From Thermodesulfobacteriota bacterium (lineage in GTDB: Bacteria > Desulfobacterota > QYQD01): a stretch of 64,000 nt of DNA. A program made the translations under genes and the position numbers. Location: the NCBI GenBank assembly GCA_031082315.1, contig JAVHLC010000011.1:35117-99116 (forward strand), read 5' to 3'. The notes beneath the pieces were generated by a model. The model searched no databases and had not been told where the DNA came from. It saw only the letters and a program-made list of their open reading frames with translations. Positions 4,297 to 62,303 of this stretch are shown one piece after another; position 1 is the stretch's first letter; each line of letters opens with the position of its first letter.

Positions 4297-5892
4297 ATGG
4301 CCAAGAAAAGCAGTGAAATCAAAAACGTGTGGATGGTTACACGTGAATACGATGGACTGGCGGGCGCCGGGGGGGTAAAGGACGTATGCAAGCAACTCTC
4401 CCATGCCCTGGCCCGTGCCGGGATTAAGATTACGGTGGTCATGCCGCTTTACGGGATGATGAATAAGGAGAGATTAAATCTGAAGCCGACCTCTTATTCC
4501 TTCAACGTAAGAATGGATTATACCGGTGAAGAGCGGCAGGAAGAGGTGTGTATCTGGAACCTGACGCAGGGCAAGGTCCGGATTTTATTTGTGGATAGCG
4601 CCCGTTTCAGCGAAAAGAAAAGCGTTTATACTTATACTGCCGAGGAAGAGGCGCAGGATCCCAGCCACAAACAGGGCGCAGGCCATTATGACTATTTTGC
4701 CATGAATGTCTTGCTGCAAAAAGCAGCCCTCGAACTGATGATCTATATGGATGAAAGGCCTGAAATCATCCACTGTCAGGACGGGCATACGGCTATTATG
4801 CCGGCCATAATCCGCGAAGTCGATGGATACCGGGCCTATTTTGCAGGGACGGGCGCCCTGGTTACGGTGCATAATGCGGGGGTCGGTTATCACCAAGAGG
4901 TGGGCGACCTGTCTTTTGCCAGGGCTATTACCGGGTTGCCGGGATATGTCATTGAACATTCCTTGCTTCATAATGCCTTTGATCCTTTTATTGCGGCAGC
5001 GCGCTATGCAGTTATAAATACGGTGAGCGAAAACTATGCGCGGGAGCTTCAGGAAACGGAGGCAGATCGTCTTACCGGCTGGCTGGGCCATAGCTTGAAG
5101 TCCAGAGGAATAGTCCTTGAGGGTGTAACGAATGGCATTGACCCGGAGGATTTTGATCCGGAAAAACCGGAGAAGCTGGGTATTCCGGCGGCCTTCAGCC
5201 CATTAAAGGACGATTTTCAGGGCAAAGAAATCTGCAAGAAGACCCTTATCGAGGATATAAACAGGCGTAAGTTTGAGAAAGTAAACGCCATCGGCCGGAT
5301 TGATTATGCGGCAGGCAAACCCCTTTTGACTATGGTGGGCCGGCTGACAGAACAAAAAGGCGTGGACATCCTGGTTCGGGCCTTACAGATGCTGATGCCA
5401 AAAGACAAAGAGTTTCAGGCGCTGATCCTGGGTAGCGGCTCCAGGCATATAGAGAACTCTCTGGCCACCTTGGCCGGCCTGTCGGAGAATAGGGGGCGTA
5501 TGGCGGTTCTCTTTGGTTATGATCCGGTATTGGCCAACCAGATTTATGCGGCAGGGGACTTTTTTGTCATCCCTTCACAATATGAACCCTGTGGACTTAC
5601 CGATTTTATGGCCCAGTTAATGGGTAACGTCCCCATTGTCCATCTGACCGGCGGTCTGGTTAAGGTTATCGACGGGCAGACCGGCTTTGGTTATTCAGAT
5701 CATAACCCGGAAGCCCTGGTTCAAACTATCAGAAAGGCCCTGGCTATTTATCGGGACACCCCGGCAGTTTTACGGCAAATACAGCGTAAGGCCGTGGAAA
5801 CTATAGATAGCCATTATACCTGGGACAGAGTACTGGGTCGCTATAAAAGTCTTTATAAAAAAGCACAGAATATGAGTAAATTAATTGGATAA
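4297..5892 (+). CDS. glgA: Glycogen/starch synthase (ADP-glucose type)
   Basis: 531 aa. N-terminal EYDGLAGAGGVKDV (KxGGL-like motif) and GT1 C-terminal domain (PSQYEPCGLTDF). Confidence 0.9.
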   Translation: MAKKSSEIKNVWMVTREYDGLAGAGGVKDVCKQLSHALARAGIKITVVMPLYGMMNKERLNLKPTSYSFNVRMDYTGEERQEEVCIWNLTQGKVRILFVDSARFSEKKSVYTYTAEEEAQDPSHKQGAGHYDYFAMNVLLQKAALELMIYMDERPEIIHCQDGHTAIMPAIIREVDGYRAYFAGTGALVTVHNAGVGYHQEVGDLSFARAITGLPGYVIEHSLLHNAFDPFIAAARYAVINTVSENYARELQETEADRLTGWLGHSLKSRGIVLEGVTNGIDPEDFDPEKPEKLGIPAAFSPLKDDFQGKEICKKTLIEDINRRKFEKVNAIGRIDYAAGKPLLTMVGRLTEQKGVDILVRALQMLMPKDKEFQALILGSGSRHIENSLATLAGLSENRGRMAVLFGYDPVLANQIYAAGDFFVIPSQYEPCGLTDFMAQLMGNVPIVHLTGGLVKVIDGQTGFGYSDHNPEALVQTIRKALAIYRDTPAVLRQIQRKAVETIDSHYTWDRVLGRYKSLYKKAQNMSKLIG

Positions 5893-6000: not shown

Positions 6001-6789
6001 TTAAGGACTGCTTTTTATAATATCTTTTATAGCCTGCATGCCCTGTTGGACTTCCTTACTGTCCGGGTTAATATCCAGGGCCTTTTGATATGTATCCAGG
6101 GACTTTTCCATCCAGTTTCCTTCCCGATAACTTTCGGCAGCCAGGCAGTAACCTCTTTCCTTCTGACCGGAAAACATCTCCTCAAAAAGCCGGGGTATGG
6201 AATTTATCCCCCAGATCCGGTCAAATTCGGGCTCATTTTCTATTAATAGACGAAGCACAAGGTGGTTATCCGGGTATTTCAGCAAGACTTTATGCAATTG
6301 TCCGGCTGCCCTTAAAAAGAGGCGATTCAGATGGCCCATCGCCAAATTGACCTCTGCGGTTGTTTTTTCAAAAAGTTCCAAATAATCATCCATGCCTTGA
6401 TTTTCTGTAAATTTCTTATGTTGATAGATCATTTTTTCATAAGCCGGTTTATAATGTTGCAATAAGTAAATATTTTCTTTGAGCTTCATGCCCTCGTGGA
6501 AGATAGAGCCAACGAGCCAATCCAGAAGGGCGCACTCGACGTCCATTTGCTCCTCATCGCCCCACACCGCATGACAGAGGTCTTTGAACTGCCACAGGGG
6601 CCCCTTCCGCACCTCGGTGCCGATCCAGTAGTCCATATTTTTAAAGGACATCTCTGCGCTCTCATTATATGTCTTGTATAGTTGTTCAAAAAAATTTAAG
6701 GTTTTTAGAAAGTCACGTATGGCATTTCGGACAAAGATGTCTTTATGTTCTTCAAACCAGTTATTGCGGGCCGACTTCTTATTGGTCAC
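6001..6789 (-). CDS. Hypothetical protein with C-terminal TPR-like repeat
   Basis: 262-aa ORF whose start overlaps the radical SAM gene stop by 4 nt. No recognisable catalytic motif. Confidence 0.5.
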   Translation of the reverse strand: MTNKKSARNNWFEEHKDIFVRNAIRDFLKTLNFFEQLYKTYNESAEMSFKNMDYWIGTEVRKGPLWQFKDLCHAVWGDEEQMDVECALLDWLVGSIFHEGMKLKENIYLLQHYKPAYEKMIYQHKKFTENQGMDDYLELFEKTTAEVNLAMGHLNRLFLRAAGQLHKVLLKYPDNHLVLRLLIENEPEFDRIWGINSIPRLFEEMFSGQKERGYCLAAESYREGNWMEKSLDTYQKALDINPDSKEVQQGMQAIKDIIKSSP

Positions 6790-8594
6790 TCCCTGAGTCC
6801 TCCTTCTCTGACCGCCAGGCTAAGATATTGATCATTTTCTTTCAACATAATACGTTTTTGTACTAATTCATTAAAAAACTTTTGTAAAGACTCCAGCGAG
6901 CAGCCAGGAAATCCCTCTTTTATATCCTTGAGTGATTTTATGGTCGTACAGTAGAGATATACATTGCGGGAGGGACCGTGGAGTCTATGGATTTGAACAC
7001 TACCATCTGATCTTATCTGTCGTATGCTGAGAAACCTGCCCCCATCCCGGTAAGAGAGAAGGGGTTGCGACGGATATTGGTTTCGCAGAAGAAAATAGTC
7101 TTTCCGCCACATTTCCACCTTTTTTGCTACCGGTCTCCATAAGGTATATTGTCGGGATCTATCGCCCCGATGAGCCTGCTGTATTAGTATTAGTCGTGCA
7201 AAGAGTTCCTTTGACAAAAACGATTTATACAGGTGGTGATTGCCTGTCCGTTTAACCCCGAATTCTTTGGCAGTACAAAAGACCGGACTGCCGTAGCCCA
7301 ACCAGAAAGACGCCATTTTTAATGGATAAAAAGGCCATACGAAATCGAGGGCGTCCAGTGTTTCTTTCACTTCAGCCGGTGAGCTGCCAGGAAACATGGT
7401 GATCAGGTTGCCGGATTGAATAATGCCCAGCTCTTCGCAGTGCCTCATGGTCTCTATATTCTGGAGGGCTGTGGTTCCTTTGCCCATTCGTTTTAGCAGA
7501 GAAGAACTTAAGGCCTCGATGCCGATCTGGACCGTTTTCAGCCCGCCTTCGCGCATTAAGGCCAGGGCTTGGGCGGATTGTCCGGCGCGCAGCTCGGCGA
7601 AGATGCCAAGGTCTTTTTCCAATGTGGTGAGGGCGGTAAAAAGCTCCGGCCCCTGATGAGGCGGCAGCGCATTGTCGGTGAAGGCCAGATCAATGGACGG
7701 ATAGCGATCGGTCAGGTCCTTGATCTCCCCTACCATCTGAGGTACAGATTTCTTTCTATAGCTGTGCCATTGGAGGTTAAGGTTACAAAAGCGGCATTTC
7801 CGCCACCAGCAGCCGCGTGAAAACTCTACCGGCAGGACCGGCAGGAATGGAATCCGGGGGGATATATCCTGTAGGAGGTTAAAATAATCCCCATAATCCG
7901 GCGGCGGAAGTGAGCTTAAGGCGTTGATCTCATCATAACTCCCCCCTGATACCATGCCCTGGCTGTTACGGTAAAAGACCCCGGGTCCTGGTTTATCGAC
8001 CTCCCCCTTAAGAAGACGTACAATGGATAAGAGGGGTTTTTCGCCTTCACCGGAGACGACAAAATCTATCTCCGGCAAGCTGGAGAGAATGGCCCGTCCC
8101 ATCTCGCCCGAACAGCTTGAACCGCCGGCTACAATGGTTATCTCTGGAAATCTCGCCTTCAGGGTACGTATGGCGTAGAGTGAAGATGTAAGCTGATTAA
8201 GGCAGATAGAGAAGCCTATTAGGTTGAACTGCCTCCAATCCCTCGACCGTATAAAAGCTTCATGGTGATCGCTGAGTTTAGACTTAAGAGCGGAGAGATC
8301 AAAATGAAGTTTATATTTTTTAGACCTTTTTTGTTTGTTTATTAAGGAATGAATCGATGTATTTTTTTCCGGAAAGAGGAGTGAGGCATAGATAGCCTCG
8401 GTAATCCAGCTATGTTTTGAAATCTCGTGGTAGAGTTCAAAACCGATCTGGGCGGCGACTTCCAGATAAATCGGGTAAGTGGAGATATCGAGGGCATCAT
8501 CCTGCGATGCAAGGTAGGATTTAAGCGCACCGAGTTGTATGGAGGGCCGGTTAAATAGCGGCCAGGGCATGGAAATTAGGGCTATCCGGAACAT
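6786..8594 (-). CDS. B12-binding-domain radical SAM protein (RiPP-maturase-like)
   Basis: N-terminal B12-binding-like region (GFSICLNQL...VAGGSSCSG). Cluster motif is SRGCWWRKCRFCNLN. C-terminal ~90 aa looks like a winged-helix / RRE-type extension. Confidence 0.8.
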   Translation of the reverse strand: MFRIALISMPWPLFNRPSIQLGALKSYLASQDDALDISTYPIYLEVAAQIGFELYHEISKHSWITEAIYASLLFPEKNTSIHSLINKQKRSKKYKLHFDLSALKSKLSDHHEAFIRSRDWRQFNLIGFSICLNQLTSSLYAIRTLKARFPEITIVAGGSSCSGEMGRAILSSLPEIDFVVSGEGEKPLLSIVRLLKGEVDKPGPGVFYRNSQGMVSGGSYDEINALSSLPPPDYGDYFNLLQDISPRIPFLPVLPVEFSRGCWWRKCRFCNLNLQWHSYRKKSVPQMVGEIKDLTDRYPSIDLAFTDNALPPHQGPELFTALTTLEKDLGIFAELRAGQSAQALALMREGGLKTVQIGIEALSSSLLKRMGKGTTALQNIETMRHCEELGIIQSGNLITMFPGSSPAEVKETLDALDFVWPFYPLKMASFWLGYGSPVFCTAKEFGVKRTGNHHLYKSFLSKELFARLILIQQAHRGDRSRQYTLWRPVAKKVEMWRKDYFLLRNQYPSQPLLSYRDGGRFLSIRQIRSDGSVQIHRLHGPSRNVYLYCTTIKSLKDIKEGFPGCSLESLQKFFNELVQKRIMLKENDQYLSLAVREGGLRE

Positions 8595-9130
8595 TTCCTG
8601 TCAGCATGAACATGCATAGCGAGCGCATTCCCCGTTGCTTGCCATCCAGGTCCGACACTGGCGGGCAGCGGGGTTAGCGAGCGAATACGATGCATTTTAC
8701 CTTGCATACGGAGATTCCCCGCAGCTTGCTGCGGGGGGGCTTCAACATGGCTTAACGATAATGAGACCTTCCGGGCGGGGGCCTTTTTGTCCGGCTGTTT
8801 ATAATGCATCCTGTAATCTTCAATGGCCAGCATGAGGCCAAAGGCGATGGCTAAGACCAGAAATATCTTGATGATCCGTGGCCAGGATGGCCTTGTCTTT
8901 TCGATCCAGACAAGGAGTCTAACCAGAAGCCGGGTAAAAATCGCAGCCAGGCCTGAAGACCAGAAAATCTTTATTCCGGTTTCGCACATAGAGCGGCCAA
9001 CGTCTCCGGGGTAATAACGCAGGGCGATGAAAAACCAGCCTAAGGCGCAAACGGCCACAATGATCTTATCCCGTGTAGTCCAGATAGGGTTAAGAGACTC
9101 AGATTTTGTTGCCACTATCCCGTCCTTCAA
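8582..9130 (-). CDS. Small membrane protein; its 3' third is read through repeat R1
   Basis: 3-4 hydrophobic helices in the first ~110 aa. The last ~50 codons (SHVEAPPQQAAGNLRMQGKMHRIRS...) are encoded by the R1 repeat, so the native C-terminus is uncertain. Confidence 0.4.
   Translation of the reverse strand: MKDGIVATKSESLNPIWTTRDKIIVAVCALGWFFIALRYYPGDVGRSMCETGIKIFWSSGLAAIFTRLLVRLLVWIEKTRPSWPRIIKIFLVLAIAFGLMLAIEDYRMHYKQPDKKAPARKVSLSLSHVEAPPQQAAGNLRMQGKMHRIRSLTPLPASVGPGWQATGNALAMHVHADRKCSG
8607..8745 (+). repeat. Repeat family R1, long form (copy a)
   Basis: TGAACATGCATAGCGAGCG...GCATACGGAGATTCCCC-[hairpin]-GCTTCAA. About 90% identical to 41231-41376. Confidence 0.85.
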
Positions 9131-9419
9131 AACCTAACCACAGAGAACACAGAGTTTTTGAAATTTAAAATTTTTTCTCCGTGTTTTCCGTGGTAAAATT
9201 TTTCCTTTTTTCTCTTATTGATCCCTGTAATATTATTGTCATTCCGGGCTTGACCCGGAATCCAGTCTTTTTTCTCTGGATTCCCGCTTTCGAGGGAATG
9301 ACGATAAACGGACATTTATTATGCAGCATTCAATAATTGCTATCTTTTTTTTGATTTCTTGATAAATATTTAGTTTTCTCCGTGCACTCTGTGGTTATTT
9401 TTATAAAACTTTTGTATTT

Positions 9420-9830
9420 TTATAAAGAGAACAACAGGAGGGCTGCCAGAGAGAAGAGTACGCCCAGGGCCTGTTTCAGGGTTAAGGTCTCTTTTAGAAA
9501 TATGGCGCTCAGTAAGAGGGTAATCAGGGGATAAAGGGCGGTCATAGTGACCACCACCGATGCCTTGCCTTTAGCCAGCGCCAGCAGAAAAAAGACCGTA
9601 CCCAGGGCAGCGGCCAGTCCGGCCAGTATGCTAAAGATGATCCCCCGGGTATTTATCTCAGGGCGGAAGTCTATAGATATGAGAACGGAGAAGATTACTA
9701 TAAGGGTCCCAATGGCCTGGTAAATAAACACGCTCCTGGGAGGCAGGTAATTTGTGGCCAGTTTTGGGAAAAAGCCCCATATACCCCATAGGATTAAGCA
9801 AGCGATAGATGGCGAGAACCAGTTATGCAT
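9420..9830 (-). CDS. EamA-like (DMT superfamily) small membrane transporter
   Basis: Four hydrophobic helices of EamA-domain type. Start moved to MHNWFSPS because the upstream part of the tracked ORF is encoded by an intergenic repeat. Confidence 0.6.
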   Translation of the reverse strand: MHNWFSPSIACLILWGIWGFFPKLATNYLPPRSVFIYQAIGTLIVIFSVLISIDFRPEINTRGIIFSILAGLAAALGTVFFLLALAKGKASVVVTMTALYPLITLLLSAIFLKETLTLKQALGVLFSLAALLLFSL

Positions 9831-9863
9831 ATATAGTCGATAGTGAATAGTCGATGGTTGATA

Positions 9864-10046
9864 GCTGAAGGCTGAAAGCTCAAGGCTGAAAGCCTTAAAA
9901 CCAGAGAAACCAAAGAAAACAGAGAAACTACGGACAACGGACCACGGACAATACATACTTACCGGTAAAAAGACTTTGTTACGAAATCGTCAAGGTTGAG
10001 CCTTTAGCCTTGAGCCTTGAGCTTTCAGCCTTCAGCTTTTAGCTTT
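9864..10046. repeat. Long inverted repeat built from GCTGAAGG / GCTGAAAG word repeats
   Basis: Left arm GCTGAAGGCTGAAAGCTCAAGGCT is the perfect reverse complement of 24 nt in the right arm. Spacer is about 110 nt. Confidence 0.8.
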
Positions 10047-10062
10047 TAGCCTCTGGCTCCCC

Positions 10063-12812: not shown

Positions 12813-13813
12813 TGGGCTAGCTGCAAAAATAGATTTTCTAATATCAATTGCCGGTTATAATTCCTGGTAACGGCCTGCTCGGCGCTGTGCAGGAGTTCCA
12901 GACCATGTATAATCTCTTTCTCTGTCCATCGCCGGGCGCCTTCAAAAAGGACCTCTCTCAGGTCTTTATTTATGAGGTGTCTCTCATCCAGCCCCTGCCG
13001 TAAGAACAACGAGTCCCGGAGGCAGGTACTGAGCATGGCGATAATCTCCGGGAGCTCCTCTTTCCGTCCGGCCAGGTCTTCGGCCAGGAGCAGCAGGCCT
13101 TGCATGTCCTGCCTGGAAAGAGAGATTAATTGTATGCAGACATCCCGCCGCATCTCCATAAGCGGAGAATCGGCCAGCCTGACGGCCCTGCCCAGGCTGC
13201 CCCCGGAGAGGGAGGCCAGAAGGGCAGCCTGGGCAGGGGGAAACCTGTTATCTCCATAGGAGCAGAGATATTCGCTAATCACCTCCGGCGAGAGAGGGCG
13301 GAAGGGGACGGCCTGGCAACGGGAGACGATGGTGGGCAGAAGTTCATTTATATCCGTAGCCATCAGGATAATAATGGAGGCATCCGGCGGTTCTTCCAGG
13401 GTCTTGAGAAGGCAGTTGGCCGATTCTTTGTTTAACAGATCGGCATTGGTTATTATAACGATGCGGTAACGCCCTTCCAGGGGTTTGTATCTTAACTGCC
13501 TTTGTAAAGACCTTATCTGTTCGATCCTTATAAAGGCCCCGCTTGGTTTGATGACGACAAGGTCCGGATGGGCGCCGCTTTCCATCTTTAGACATGAGCG
13601 GCATTTACCAGCACAGGCCTCGACGCCCTGCGGTGATAGACAATTGAGGGCCCGGGCCAGGGCGCGGGCGGTCTTTTCCTTGCCGATGCCTTCGATCCCG
13701 TAAAAGAGATAGGCGTGGGCCACCTTGCCTCTCTCAAGGGAGTTTTTCAGCAATTTAATGGCCGGCTCCTGTCCCAATATCTCCGCAAACGACATACTAT
13801 TTTTTCCCGGCAT
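12809..13813 (-). CDS. holB: DNA polymerase III subunit delta'
   Basis: HAYLFYGIEGIGK Walker-like motif, Cys zinc module and SRCQ motif. Confidence 0.85.
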   Translation of the reverse strand: MPGKNSMSFAEILGQEPAIKLLKNSLERGKVAHAYLFYGIEGIGKEKTARALARALNCLSPQGVEACAGKCRSCLKMESGAHPDLVVIKPSGAFIRIEQIRSLQRQLRYKPLEGRYRIVIITNADLLNKESANCLLKTLEEPPDASIIILMATDINELLPTIVSRCQAVPFRPLSPEVISEYLCSYGDNRFPPAQAALLASLSGGSLGRAVRLADSPLMEMRRDVCIQLISLSRQDMQGLLLLAEDLAGRKEELPEIIAMLSTCLRDSLFLRQGLDERHLINKDLREVLFEGARRWTEKEIIHGLELLHSAEQAVTRNYNRQLILENLFLQLAH

Positions 13814-14867
13814 TCAATCTGTCTATCAGGCTGTAGGTCTCCCCGGCCGCCGGTTCCCGGACGCCGGTCTTTTCTTTTTCAGACTCCGGCGTTTCTTCAA
13901 GGTCTTCCTCCCCAAAGTAGATATAACGATCCAGGGGGCGGAAAAAACTACTCCAGCGGGCCGAGGGTTCCAAATGCGCCTTCTTAAGGCTTTTTATGGC
14001 GTTGACCTTGGCGTCCAGGTCGTCTAAAAGGTGCAAAACAAAGGCCTCGGCCGTCTTGGGACGCTTCGGCGATCCGGATTCGTATTCCCCGTGATGGCTG
14101 AGGATGAGGTGTTTCAAAAGCATGGCCTTATCCTCGGGAAAGTGGGGTATGGCCTCGATCTTTTCCTGTATCATCTGGGCCCCGATCACCAGATGGCCGA
14201 CCAGGCGACCCTCATCCGTATAATCAAAAAAACTGGACTCCGGCGGATAAGTGAATTCTTTTATCTTACCGATGTCGTGGAGAATGCTTCCGGTGACGAG
14301 GAGGTCTTTGTCAAGTTCCGGATAATTTTTTACTGCGCCGGTTACTAAAGTAGTCACGGATAAGGTGTGTTCCAAGAGGCCGCCCAGATAGGCATGATGC
14401 ATACGTTTGGCCGCGGGAGCCACTCTGAAACGCTGACGAAATTTTTTGTCATTAAAAAAGCCGTTTAATATCAGCATCAAATGAGGATCCCGGACGTTTC
14501 CGGCTAATTCCTTTAATTCCCGCCACATCTCTTCGCTATCTCTGGATGAAGAGGGCAGAAAGGCCGCAGCCTCCACGGCCTCCGGACTGCACGGGGTAAG
14601 GTGTATTATGTTCAACTGGGTCTGGTCACGGTAGGATTCGGCCTGGGCCTCTATAGAGATATAATCCCCTTTTTTAAAAAGGCCGTCCCTTTCCTCGCCC
14701 CTTTCCCAGACGCGGGCCTCTATCTCTCCGGTCTTGTCCGCCAGGGTAATGGCCAGATAAAATGCGCCATTTTTGGTCAAAGCGGAGGTCTTTCCCTTGA
14801 CCAGAAATATCCCGCGCACCGGGTTATTAGGCCGGATATCCTTTATGTAACTACCTTTTTTCTGCAT
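13797..14867 (-). CDS. OB-fold plus HD-domain phosphohydrolase (YhaM-like 3'-5' exoribonuclease family)
   Basis: N-terminal OB-fold region; HD motifs (HHAYLGGLLEH, LHDIGK). Confidence 0.7.
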   Translation of the reverse strand: MQKKGSYIKDIRPNNPVRGIFLVKGKTSALTKNGAFYLAITLADKTGEIEARVWERGEERDGLFKKGDYISIEAQAESYRDQTQLNIIHLTPCSPEAVEAAAFLPSSSRDSEEMWRELKELAGNVRDPHLMLILNGFFNDKKFRQRFRVAPAAKRMHHAYLGGLLEHTLSVTTLVTGAVKNYPELDKDLLVTGSILHDIGKIKEFTYPPESSFFDYTDEGRLVGHLVIGAQMIQEKIEAIPHFPEDKAMLLKHLILSHHGEYESGSPKRPKTAEAFVLHLLDDLDAKVNAIKSLKKAHLEPSARWSSFFRPLDRYIYFGEEDLEETPESEKEKTGVREPAAGETYSLIDRLNAGKK

Positions 14868-28210: not shown

Positions 28211-28744
28211 GCGGGACGTTCATGCAGAACGTGCTTGACGAATTGTGAATAAGCAGGACATCCTCTTGAGGCGGACGGCAGTTACTCTATCTCCCGAACC
28301 CCGGAGCTTCGTCACGTTGTGCTGACTTGCCCGGAGACTGGGCCTGGTATGCCGTTTACTCGCCACGTCCTGTGGCTCGCCCTTCGGGCCAGCAAAGCTG
28401 TTCAAGATCGTTCATCCTGACGATTTTGTCTGTTCGTCGGCTCATAGCTTTGCGCTCCGGGTTACCGCTCCCTACGGTCGCTCTCGCCGTTGGCTCGTGG
28501 TCTCCGCTGCGCTTCGAACCCTTCGACGGTCTCTCACGATTCCGCCCTTGCCTTCGGCTGGTACTTCTGCTAACGTATCACTAACTAGGCAGGGTTCACC
28601 CTGTTAAATTCCCCCCAGGGAACCCTATTTAACAGGGTGAACGTACAGGGGGGACTTACACCCCTTAAGCTCACGCCCATGCCGGGCGTACACAACTGCG
28701 TTCACGCGACCTCGTGACCTCGGCGCGTGACCCACATGTTATTA
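28211..28744 (+). other. attC-type site B, interrupted by an intron-like element
   Basis: Without 28218-28693 it reads GCGGGAC-AACTGC-GTTCACGCG-ACCTCGTGACCTCGG-CGCGTGA-CCCACAT-GTTATTA. Confidence 0.6.
28218..28693 (-). mobile_element. ORF-less group II (class C-like) intron-like RNA, copy B
   Basis: About 90% identical to copy A with the same ends. Lacks one ~23-nt hairpin. Shows at least one compensatory U-A to C-G change in a small stem. Confidence 0.6.
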
Positions 28745-41230: not shown

Positions 41231-41376
41231 TGAACATGCATAGCGAGCGCATTCCCCGCTGCTTGCCATCCAGGTCCGACCCTGGCGGGCGGCGGGGTTA
41301 GCGAGCGAATACTATGCTTTTTACCTTACATACGGAGATTCCCTGTCCGCCGCAGGCGAACTGCGGGGAGCTTCAA
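41231..41376 (+). repeat. Repeat family R1, long form (copy c)
   Basis: Same architecture as 8607-8745. The terminal hairpin sequence differs (CCGCAG-GCGAA-CTGCGG). Confidence 0.85.
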
Positions 41377-41552
41377 TCTTTATTCACAAGTTTTTGCAAA
41401 ATATCGACTTAAAATTTTAAAGTCAAGCCTTAATTGTAATAGTTCACCGCAGAGTGCGCAGAGAACGCCTCTGCCTGCCCGCCTTGCCTTGGATGCTTGA
41501 GTCCGGTGATTAAGGTTTTTCTTTTTTGTGTCGATATAGTTGGCGTAGCTTG

Positions 41553-41720
41553 TTGCCATCCGGCCACGGGCCGAAAGCCCCGGTTTTCCGGATGGAACGG
41601 TCAGCAGTCGGCTATCAGCGTTCAGCTTAAGATGATGTTGTTTGTCTTATTTTTTTGCTGACGGCTGAAAGCTGATCGCTGAGGGCTTTCATCCGGAAAC
41701 GGTAGTTTCCGGATGAAAAC
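41553..41720. repeat. Repeat family R3: ~170-bp nested palindromic element
   Basis: TTTTCCGGATGGA...CAGCAGTCGGCTATCAGCGTTCAGC...GCTGACGGCTGAAAGCTGATCGCTG...CCGGAAACGGTAGTTTCCGGATGAAAAC. Related copies at 56546 and 62181. Confidence 0.8.
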
Positions 41721-41746
41721 TAACTCAAGCGGAGGATTGGCTAAAG

Positions 41747-56545: not shown

Positions 56546-56692
56546 GTTTTCATCCGGAAAACCAAGTTTTCCGGATGGAGCAGTCAGCACTCAGCTATCA
56601 GCATTCAGCTTAACATAATGTTTGTCCTACTCTTTTGCTGACAGCTGATGGCTGAAAGCGTGAAGCCGGAAACAGTAGTTTCCGGATGAAAA
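56546..56692. repeat. Repeat family R3 copy
   Basis: GTTTTCATCCGGAAAACC...CAGCACTCAGCTATCAGCATTCAGC...GCTGACAGCTGATGGCTGAAAGCG...CCGGAAACAGTAGTTTCCGGATGAAAAC. Confidence 0.8.
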
Positions 56693-56727
56693 CTGGATTG
56701 ATTTTTAGCAGGGCAGGACGGGACGAA

Positions 56728-61588: not shown

Positions 61589-62173
61589 TCAATTTTCTAC
61601 AATTACATAGGGTGCTATTTCTTTTAGTTTCTTTTCCCCGATCCCCTCGACATTCATAAGATCAGCAATGTCTTTGTACGGTCCATTTTGTTCGCGGAAG
61701 ATAATGATGCGCCGGGCAAGTTGCGGCCCGATGCCGGGGATTAGTTCCAGATTCTGTTCCGTGGCCGTGTTTAAAGGCATTGATATGTCCAGGAGAAGGC
61801 GTTCGGGATTGGTCATGGGGATAATTTTAATCTCATTTGTCCCCTCCGGTTTAGGGGTAACCAGAAGCTTTGTACCGGTAGGCACTTTCTGTGACAGGAG
61901 GACAGGGGAGTGCGAGGGATTTCGTTTCAACCCGCCGGCCCTTTCAATTACTTCTTTGACTGATGGTTGTAAGTAGAAAGTGTAGAGGCCGGGGGATCGT
62001 ACTCCACCCATGACTCGGACGTATTTTAGACCCTGGGTGGGAAATGACTCTGTAGGTGAGGCTGACCCGGGAGTTCTGCCATAAGAGAGGTAAAGACAGA
62101 CACCGAGCAGGACGACGGCTAGTAAGAGGACGGCCTGTTGCTCGTATCTGGTCATGATTATTGGGGGTTTCAT
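61589..62173 (-). CDS. comEA: ComEA-like DNA-binding protein (SLBB plus tandem helix-hairpin-helix)
   Basis: N-terminal TM helix. C-terminal LELIPGIGPQLARRII...VEGIGEKKLKEI. Confidence 0.8.
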   Translation of the reverse strand: MKPPIIMTRYEQQAVLLLAVVLLGVCLYLSYGRTPGSASPTESFPTQGLKYVRVMGGVRSPGLYTFYLQPSVKEVIERAGGLKRNPSHSPVLLSQKVPTGTKLLVTPKPEGTNEIKIIPMTNPERLLLDISMPLNTATEQNLELIPGIGPQLARRIIIFREQNGPYKDIADLMNVEGIGEKKLKEIAPYVIVEN

Positions 62174-62180
62174 TATATGG

Positions 62181-62300
62181 CGGTCAGCTATCAGCGCTCA
62201 GCGTTCAGCTTAAGATGCTGGTTGTCTTGATTTTTTGCTGAGAGCTGACGGCTGATGGCTGAAAGCGTGAATCCGGAAACGGTAGTTTCCGGATGAACAC
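62181..62300. repeat. Repeat family R3 copy (lacks left outer arm)
   Basis: GGTCAGCTATCAGCGCTCAGCGTTCAGC...GCTGAGAGCTGACGGCTGATGGCTGAAAGCG...CCGGAAACGGTAGTTTCCGGATGAACAC. Confidence 0.8.
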
Positions 62301-62303
62301 TAA

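Follow-up and report, generated by a model that had tools for sequence, protein, structure and literature searches.

PoyC-type class B radical S-adenosylmethionine (SAM) enzymes methylate unactivated sp3 carbons of ribosomal peptides (PMC5682303). PoyC and PoyB of the polytheonamide pathway and BotRMT1-3 of the bottromycin pathway are B12-dependent peptide C-methyltransferases of this class, and they are found in defined clusters together with NHLP-type or bottromycin precursors. The NCBIfam family TIGR03975 (rSAM_ocin_1) bears the name "RiPP maturation radical SAM C-methyltransferase", where RiPP stands for a peptide that is made by the ribosome and modified after translation. The gene described here lies in a 64,000-nucleotide (nt) stretch of DNA from a Thermodesulfobacteriota bacterium (GenBank assembly GCA_031082315.1, contig JAVHLC010000011.1, positions 35,117 to 99,116), which we refer to as the window. 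It encodes a 602-amino-acid (aa) cobalamin-dependent radical SAM enzyme, hereafter rSAM. We show that this gene is an ordinary member of an already annotated family, TIGR03975, and that its cluster motif and C-terminal tail are family traits. With a probability of about 0.6, it is an orphan, stand-alone class B enzyme that C-methylates a peptide or protein encoded elsewhere.

The rSAM protein scores 348.5 bits against TIGR03975, above the cut-off of 281.85, and the match runs from position 1 to 606 of the 606-position model. The next NCBIfam families (Sden_1168, BchE, HpnJ, ApyD, PhpK, MgmA and HpnR) reach 47-68 bits only. A protein of the same sequence (P0001) is already in public databases, as is an NCBI protein with 89% identity that carries the TIGR03975 name. 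The initial annotation, made from the sequence, had described the B12-binding plus radical SAM layout of a RiPP-maturase-like enzyme. This description is borne out by the full-length family match, by Pfam and by structure prediction, and the family in question is the RiPP-named TIGR03975, not one of lipid or cofactor methylases. An AlphaFold2 model built on 22 homologues (predicted local distance difference test, pLDDT, 87; predicted template modelling score, pTM, 0.84) has its best Foldseek matches in the PDB among cobalamin-dependent radical SAM enzymes, namely OxsB, TsrM, TokK, CysS and MgmA, over 540-650 alignment columns. The alignments to the first four of these span both the B12 and the radical SAM domains. 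Strands and helices alternate in the model of the N-terminal domain, where Pfam reports a sub-threshold B12-binding match (PF02310, residues 111-189, E 6.6e-6). Membership of TIGR03975 and a class B architecture are therefore observed features of this protein. It shares with the rest of the family, including a protein from Anoxybacter, the same three-part architecture, an SRGCWWxxCxFCNLN motif and a C-terminal winged helix.

Among 1.84 billion cluster representatives, searched exhaustively, 2132 proved to be related at E <= 1e-30. Some 40 of these share 39-47% identity with the window protein, and the next step down is at 31-37%. The clade that holds the window protein corresponds to about 40 clusters at 50% identity, mainly from Thermodesulfobacteriota; Thermosulfurimonas dismutans S95, T. 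marina, Thermosulfuriphilus ammonigenes and Desulfocapsa sulfexigens are among its carriers. Ten sampled relatives, with identities down to 29%, all score above the TIGR03975 cut-off (316-405 bits). The suggestion that the window clade is peripheral to the family was rejected, since the scores of the distant members are similar.

The [4Fe-4S] motif reads C262-WWRK-C267-RF-C270, with four residues between the first two cysteines, as had been noted from the sequence. Within the block SRGC-WWxK-C-xF-CNLN, C262, C267 and C270 are the sole cysteines that never vary in the alignment of 22 sequences, so the triad proposed initially is the conserved one. A 9-aa insert follows WWxx in 9 of these 22 homologues and gives CX13CX2C. 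The spacing had also been singled out as unusual. It is indeed non-canonical, but it is not special to this protein: the SRGCWWxxCxFC block is shared by remote relatives within TIGR03975, from Firmicutes and Thermoplasmatota, and by a member embedded in a gene cluster, and a phmmer alignment places the motif on CDYSRCTFC of OxsB, whose cluster motif is documented as CX4CX2C (PMC9204698). The spacing is the signature of the whole TIGR03975 family, with a structural precedent, and no peculiarity of the window gene. PoyC and the bottromycin methyltransferases are reported to have another lengthened spacing, CX7CX2C (PMC5682303). Their motif differs, by comparison of published descriptions, from the CX4CX2C of the window protein and the CX13CX2C of some clade members.

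OxsB (PDB 5UL2-5UL4) is the best solved match, both in sequence (E 2e-10) and in structure (Foldseek E 6e-17), and it has the same CX4CX2C motif. The resemblance is limited: identity in the structural alignment is 15-16%, and in sequence only residues 179-294 and 351-398 are matched. OxsB is also longer (744 aa against 602 aa) and is without the C-terminal winged helix. Its reaction is a nucleotide ring contraction in oxetanocin A biosynthesis, not peptide methylation. OxsB carries an additional N-terminal domain, which the shorter window protein lacks, and acts together with an HD-domain partner, OxsA. The window gene has no adjacent HD-domain partner, being flanked by a membrane protein open reading frame (ORF) and a gene for a 262-aa protein that we call f262. 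The HD-domain gene closest to it (13797-14867) belongs to an unrelated run of housekeeping genes at a distance of 5 kb.

The C-terminal tail was initially taken to be a peptide-binding winged helix of about 90 aa, and at the level of the fold this proposal holds in the models; the stretch quoted for it corresponds to residues 546-596. In the full model, and again when the domain is modelled by itself (pLDDT 88.6), residues 511-596 form three strands, three helices and a hairpin. This beta-beta-beta-alpha-alpha-alpha order is that of RiPP recognition elements (RREs), and the tail fits leader-bound RREs at 1.8-2.1 A. It superposes on the leader-binding domains of lasso-peptide systems, and also on generic winged-helix regulators. 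A profile of the tail-domain sequence searched against PDB sequences returned noise only, with no RRE match. Proteusin enzymes bear C-terminal RRE fusions according to the RRE-Finder paper (PMC7470986). The tail domain is conserved across the family, and the residues IRQ and HRL in strands 2 and 3 are conserved specifically in the window clade. We conclude that the models support an RRE-like tail at fold level, with peptide docking as a prediction.

It is worth asking whether the substrate is a peptide at all. The RiPP name may have been over-extended, in which case the enzyme would have a lipid, cofactor, sugar or nucleoside as its substrate, with a winged helix that is structural or binds nucleic acid. 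The superposition of the tail on generic regulators and the nucleotide substrate of OxsB can be set beside this alternative. It is opposed by the RRE order of strands and helices and the close fit to leader-bound RREs, by the presence of the same tail domain and cluster motif in a TIGR03975 member embedded in a gene cluster (described below), and by the neighbourhoods of related genes, where no lipid or cofactor pathway gene recurs next to the enzyme in a Pfam tally of 70 loci. We regard a non-peptide substrate as improbable.

To describe these neighbourhoods, 80 related rSAM loci were taken from among at least 591 matches in species-representative genomes; the window and three additional loci bring the number compared to 84. 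BLAST clustering of all neighbours gave no family in more than 12 of the 84. The neighbours seen repeatedly are LolA, an Asp/Glu racemase, glutaminyl-tRNA synthetase, ribosomal protein S1, WbqC, TerB-DnaJ and MOSC proteins. In the 70 loci of the Pfam tally, the genes immediately flanking rSAM fall into 94 families, led by LolA (12), DnaJ (10), TerB (9), WbqC (8) and S1 (7), and none of the 94 is typical of RiPP loci. Across the roughly 80 related loci no protease, exporter or second maturase recurs beside the rSAM gene. Nor is any small ORF beside it conserved across lineages in the 80 loci, where the only small proteins seen were lineage-specific ones of the Zn-ribbon-like and DUF3795 kinds, each in six loci or fewer. 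The genes around the relatives are lineage-specific housekeeping genes, and the window clade is of a stand-alone kind. One further neighbour deserves mention: the cobinamide kinase gene cobU adjoins rSAM in four Desulfurivibrionaceae loci (L037, L069, L071 and L076), and it is the only neighbour with an obvious tie to the cobalamin cofactor of the enzyme.

The window itself gives the same picture. We scanned all 59 intergenic ORFs of at least 40 aa in the 64 kb against the NCBIfam models, and the precursor models, NHLP and Nif11 among them, gave no match, in agreement with the earlier remark that the flanks hold no precursor-like ORF. The matches obtained were to toxin-antitoxin proteins, apart from one ORF that matched several Fe-S/heterodisulfide-reductase-type models. 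The idea that the gene belongs to a RiPP cluster is supported in part only: the name of the family agrees with it and the setting does not, as the gene stands alone among housekeeping genes, like its relatives. The locus is no recognisable biosynthetic cluster, and "RiPP maturase" is here a family label, not a demonstrated role. The window gene differs from cluster-type members of TIGR03975, and from the PoyC/PoyB and bottromycin systems, in having no adjacent precursor; the protease, exporter and additional maturase of cluster-type members are missing as well.

A good example of the cluster type is found in Anoxybacter fermentans (CP016379; locus L171, 1-11419), which served as a positive control. 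Its TIGR03975 member is 34% identical to the window protein and is accompanied by two ABC exporters, three further radical SAM genes, of which one has a SPASM domain, and two TldD/PmbA peptidase genes. The gap upstream of these radical SAM genes holds an ORF of 30 aa, MKKFDILEEPVLENMEFEADIKIADGGVIC, which ends in ...ADGGVIC and is a plausible precursor. This is a classic RiPP-style cluster and appears to represent an uncharacterised RiPP system. Members from Thermoplasmatota, on the other hand, are stand-alone (L172:5891-9994 and L173:5866-10115). TIGR03975 therefore holds both cluster-embedded and stand-alone members. In the two archaeal loci we also observed a divergent double AsnC-type helix-turn-helix regulator upstream and, downstream, a conserved protein of 319-356 aa with the motif FDVLVDDLADN (DDxxD-like) and no Pfam family. 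An hhalign comparison of f262 with this archaeal downstream protein was negative, and the two are unrelated.

Could the locus be a classical RiPP locus after all, with a precursor in the flanks that is too short or too novel to recognise and the EamA transporter encoded upstream as its exporter? The family label says RiPP maturase, the plausible precursor in Anoxybacter has 30 aa and would have fallen below our 40-aa filter, and an EamA gene precedes rSAM in two lineages and an M48 peptidase gene in one. The closest syntenic record argues in the other direction. In this record (L001), from a Thermodesulfobacteriota metagenome-assembled genome whose rSAM protein is 89% identical, the genes for MetG, EamA, a protein of 132 aa, rSAM and one of 262 aa share a strand in this order, and a convergent glgA comes after them. 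The gaps from EamA to the 262-aa gene are 25 nt or negative, so these four genes leave no space for a precursor, and the extra intergenic DNA of the window consists of repeat insertions. To this can be added that no small ORF is conserved beside the gene in the 80 loci, that the EamA genes of the two lineages show no detectable relationship beyond the Pfam level, that the M48 peptidase is lineage-specific, and that a published analysis excluded antiSMASH calls resting on TIGR03975 alone as likely false positives. A hidden precursor at this locus is therefore very unlikely.

Our preferred reading remains that of a stand-alone enzyme acting on a peptide or protein from elsewhere. By analogy with characterised class B methylases such as PoyC (PMC5682303), the reduced [4Fe-4S] cluster held by C262, C267 and C270 would cleave SAM to give a 5'-deoxyadenosyl radical, which would attack a residue of the peptide at an unactivated sp3 carbon and take a hydrogen from it. 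Methylcobalamin would then give its methyl group to the substrate radical, and a second SAM would re-methylate the resulting cob(I)alamin. The C-terminal winged helix is predicted to dock a segment by which the peptide or protein is recognised. This substrate would not be encoded at the locus, being either a peptide whose gene lies elsewhere in the genome or one of the cell's conserved proteins.

Several points weigh against this proposal. Both the peptide substrate and the methyl transfer are inferences. Cobalamin-dependent radical SAM enzymes also carry out reactions other than methylation, e.g. the ring contraction by OxsB and the cyclisation by BchE, and OxsB, the nearest solved relative, is not a methylase. 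The Cys spacing of PoyC is a different one, the Pfam B12-binding score falls short of its cut-off, and our analysis confirmed no TIGR03975 member as biochemically characterised.

We now turn to the immediate surroundings of the gene (Table 1). In the lineage of the window rSAM is the third gene of a same-strand run, EamA, membrane ORF, rSAM and f262, and this order is kept in L001 and L090. The convergent glgA beyond f262 is context only and lies outside the function of rSAM. The overlaps that led the initial annotation to speak of coupled unknown genes are real: the GTG start of f262 and the TGA stop of rSAM overlap as GTGA, with the ribosome-binding site GAAGGAGGA just 5', and the membrane ORF overlaps the rSAM ATG by 13 nt. 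The first overlap implies, as judged from the sequence, translational coupling of rSAM and f262. An Rfam search for an upstream riboswitch or other RNA had no match in the operon, and a scan for promoters and terminators gave background levels only.

Table 1. Features of the rSAM locus in window coordinates
Feature	Position	Strand	Remarks
rSAM gene, 602 aa	6786..8594	-	cobalamin-dependent radical SAM enzyme, TIGR03975 family
N-terminal Rossmann-type cobalamin-binding domain, ~residues 1-240	7875..8594	-	Pfam, AlphaFold2 pattern, structural alignment
Radical SAM core, ~residues 252-420	7335..7841	-	Pfam PF04055 residues 256-415, E 8.8e-16
[4Fe-4S] motif C262-WWRK-C267-RF-C270 (CX4CX2C)	7785..7811	-	alignment and OxsB match
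C-terminal winged-helix, RRE-like domain, ~residues 511-596	6807..7064	-	predicted order b1b2b3-a1a2a3-b4b5
f262 gene, 262 aa	6001..6789	-	uncharacterised family; C-terminal TPR at 6055-6156
Small membrane protein ORF with 3 transmembrane segments, 182 aa	8582..9130	-	
Half-size EamA (DMT) transporter	9420..9956	-	Pfam EamA residues 52-177, E 5.6e-17
GlgA-like glycogen synthase, glycosyltransferase family 5 (GT5)	4297..5892	+	Pfam Glyco_transf_5 E 2.8e-35; TIGR02095 280 bits, sub-cut-off
R1 repeat, 135 nt	8615..8749	.	not in syntenic L001; boundaries read from sequence
Second insertion, ~285 nt, hairpin-bearing	9131..9415	.	between EamA gene and membrane ORF; DNA alignment against L001

The f262 family is small, with 48 protein clusters and 403 metagenome stretches. 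Its conserved core reads GTE..KGPLWQLKDLCH ... DWLVGSIFHE.MKLKENIYLL, and the invariant residues H73, D90, W91, H98, E99, K104 and E105 suggest an enzyme restricted to this bacterial group. Profile searches of f262 against the PDB and Pfam found only a single tetratricopeptide repeat (TPR). The repeat is a single C-terminal motif, matched as TPR_2 by 19 of 22 family members, and the description of the downstream protein as a TPR-tailed one that overlaps rSAM is accurate.

We examined the gene directly upstream of f262, on the same strand, in 85 loci of the family (L086-L170). Most commonly it is a glgA-like GT5 gene (36 of the 85), while rSAM is found in 16, on the same strand and with a spacing below 65 nt. 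In L156 it is purD, within the run purH-purD-f262-purE-tsaC-tkt, and in about ten further loci the upstream ORFs are of the same size as purD (425-439 aa). In other words, f262 occurs within central-metabolism operons, such as glgA-f262-gap, the purine run just mentioned and FBPase-M48-rSAM-f262. A neighbour-joining tree of f262 has three clades that match these arrangements, and the rSAM-linked class comprises two deep branches. Between the two branches the f262 proteins are 31-38% identical and the rSAM proteins 40-45%. The second rSAM-f262 lineage has the genes for a fructose-bisphosphatase (FBPase) and an M48 peptidase upstream, and sometimes a full-size EamA transporter gene.

The exceptions to the pairing are equally informative. 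Seen from the side of rSAM, f262 is adjacent in only 4 of the 84 loci. In L002 the rSAM gene lies beside glgA and without f262. In L090 (5624-6004) rSAM is cut to an in-frame remnant of 126 aa, in which residues 1-72 are joined to 549-601, while the flanking EamA, membrane and 264-aa f262 genes are intact; this f262 is 61% identical to that of the window. The remnant is either a gene loss or an assembly artefact. The rSAM family is also recovered far more often (in at least 591 species genomes) than f262.

These observations bear on the possibility that f262 is the dedicated partner or the substrate of the enzyme, so that rSAM and f262 form a functional unit. The GTGA overlap, the repeated rSAM-f262 order across two deep branches, and a constellation of invariant His, Asp and Glu residues combined with the TPR, a protein-interaction motif, all speak for such a unit. 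However, f262 more often follows glgA, or purD in L156, with no rSAM gene nearby, and it is next to few of the rSAM genes. L090 cuts both ways: a broken rSAM remains beside an intact f262, and f262 persists without a working rSAM, just as rSAM persists without f262 in L002. On balance we consider a dedicated unit unlikely. The association between the two genes is real and old and is the best lead to a partner, but it is not general, given the few adjacent pairs, L002, L090 and the far commoner rSAM family.

Only the rSAM-f262 pairing recurs outside the lineage of the window. The membrane protein is limited to this lineage (L006, L090, L091 and L093), and f262 most often follows glgA; therefore, the "coupled unknown genes" do not form a cassette that is conserved, even though their overlaps exist. 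A conserved cassette of EamA, rSAM and f262 was also considered and rejected, as the two groups of EamA proteins are not detectably homologous by jackhmmer and an M48 peptidase takes this place elsewhere. The full-size EamA genes that precede rSAM in L039, L050, L114 and L148 are unrelated to the half-size gene of the window, which a jackhmmer search started from the full-size EamA did not detect.

A more specific version of the stand-alone reading can be put forward tentatively, although we hold it to be doubtful. The enzymes of this clade may be housekeeping post-translational modifiers and have no part in natural-product synthesis; the RRE-like tail with its IRQ and HRL residues would recognise one conserved cellular protein that is then C-methylated, and f262 would be an ancestral partner. 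The part given to f262 here is based on its position after rSAM in two deep lineages. A model for stand-alone working is provided by MgmA/QCMT, the cobalamin-dependent radical SAM glutamine C-methyltransferase of methyl-coenzyme M reductase (MCR), which methylates a residue of a housekeeping protein and not of a secreted peptide. The window protein reaches 50 bits on the corresponding model TIGR04014, against a cut-off of 360, and differs in its C-terminal region. If this version were true, the B12 radical SAM modifications known so far mainly from the MCR of methanogens would have a counterpart in bacteria.

The results are of importance for genome mining. The mining tools count each TIGR03975 match as a RiPP-like cluster. 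As the window gene and about 80 related loci show, a large clade, mainly of Thermodesulfobacteriota, is stand-alone in housekeeping surroundings, and its members should not be counted as clusters without further evidence.

Two repeat insertions distinguish the window from L001. The membrane ORF is 80% identical to the 132-aa gene of L001 over 126 aa, and the start of the L001 homologue maps to a GTG at 9115. The 3' end of the ORF was reported to have been rewritten by an R1 repeat, and the comparison with L001 confirms an in-frame insertion of 135 nt, which extends the C-terminal tail by 45 aa and ends 21 nt 5' of the rSAM ATG. At least three copies of R1 are present in the window, the others at 41231-41377 (95%) and 24474-24552; the repeat is about 135-150 nt long and has a GC-rich hairpin inside. 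The second insertion is an extra block of about 285 nt between the EamA gene and the membrane ORF, where L001 has a gap of 25 nt, and it bears the hairpin ATTCCGGGCTTGACCCGGAAT. A 62-aa ORF (9127-9315, ...WIPGQARNDN...) lies wholly within this insert and has no counterpart in L001.

Further repeats and small genes were observed in the window. A second dispersed repeat family, rich in AGCTGA (GCTGAAAGCTGA...), forms inverted pairs around the ends and starts of genes, the EamA-MetG intergenic region among them, at 9863-9893 / 10007-10050, 41571-41723, 56554-56696 and 62154-62303. A block of about 500 nt is duplicated at 26417-26919 and 28216-28695, the copies being 1.8 kb apart and 92-96% identical, and one of them overlaps an Rfam match to group II intron D1-D4 (28276-28357, minus strand, 35 bits). 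Finally, a toxin-antitoxin pair of small ORFs is located at 20683-21306 and another pair of small ORFs at 20234-20542; the pooled small ORFs of the window match the NCBIfam HigA antitoxin model (E 3e-29) and, more weakly, the Txe/YoeB and YafQ toxin models.

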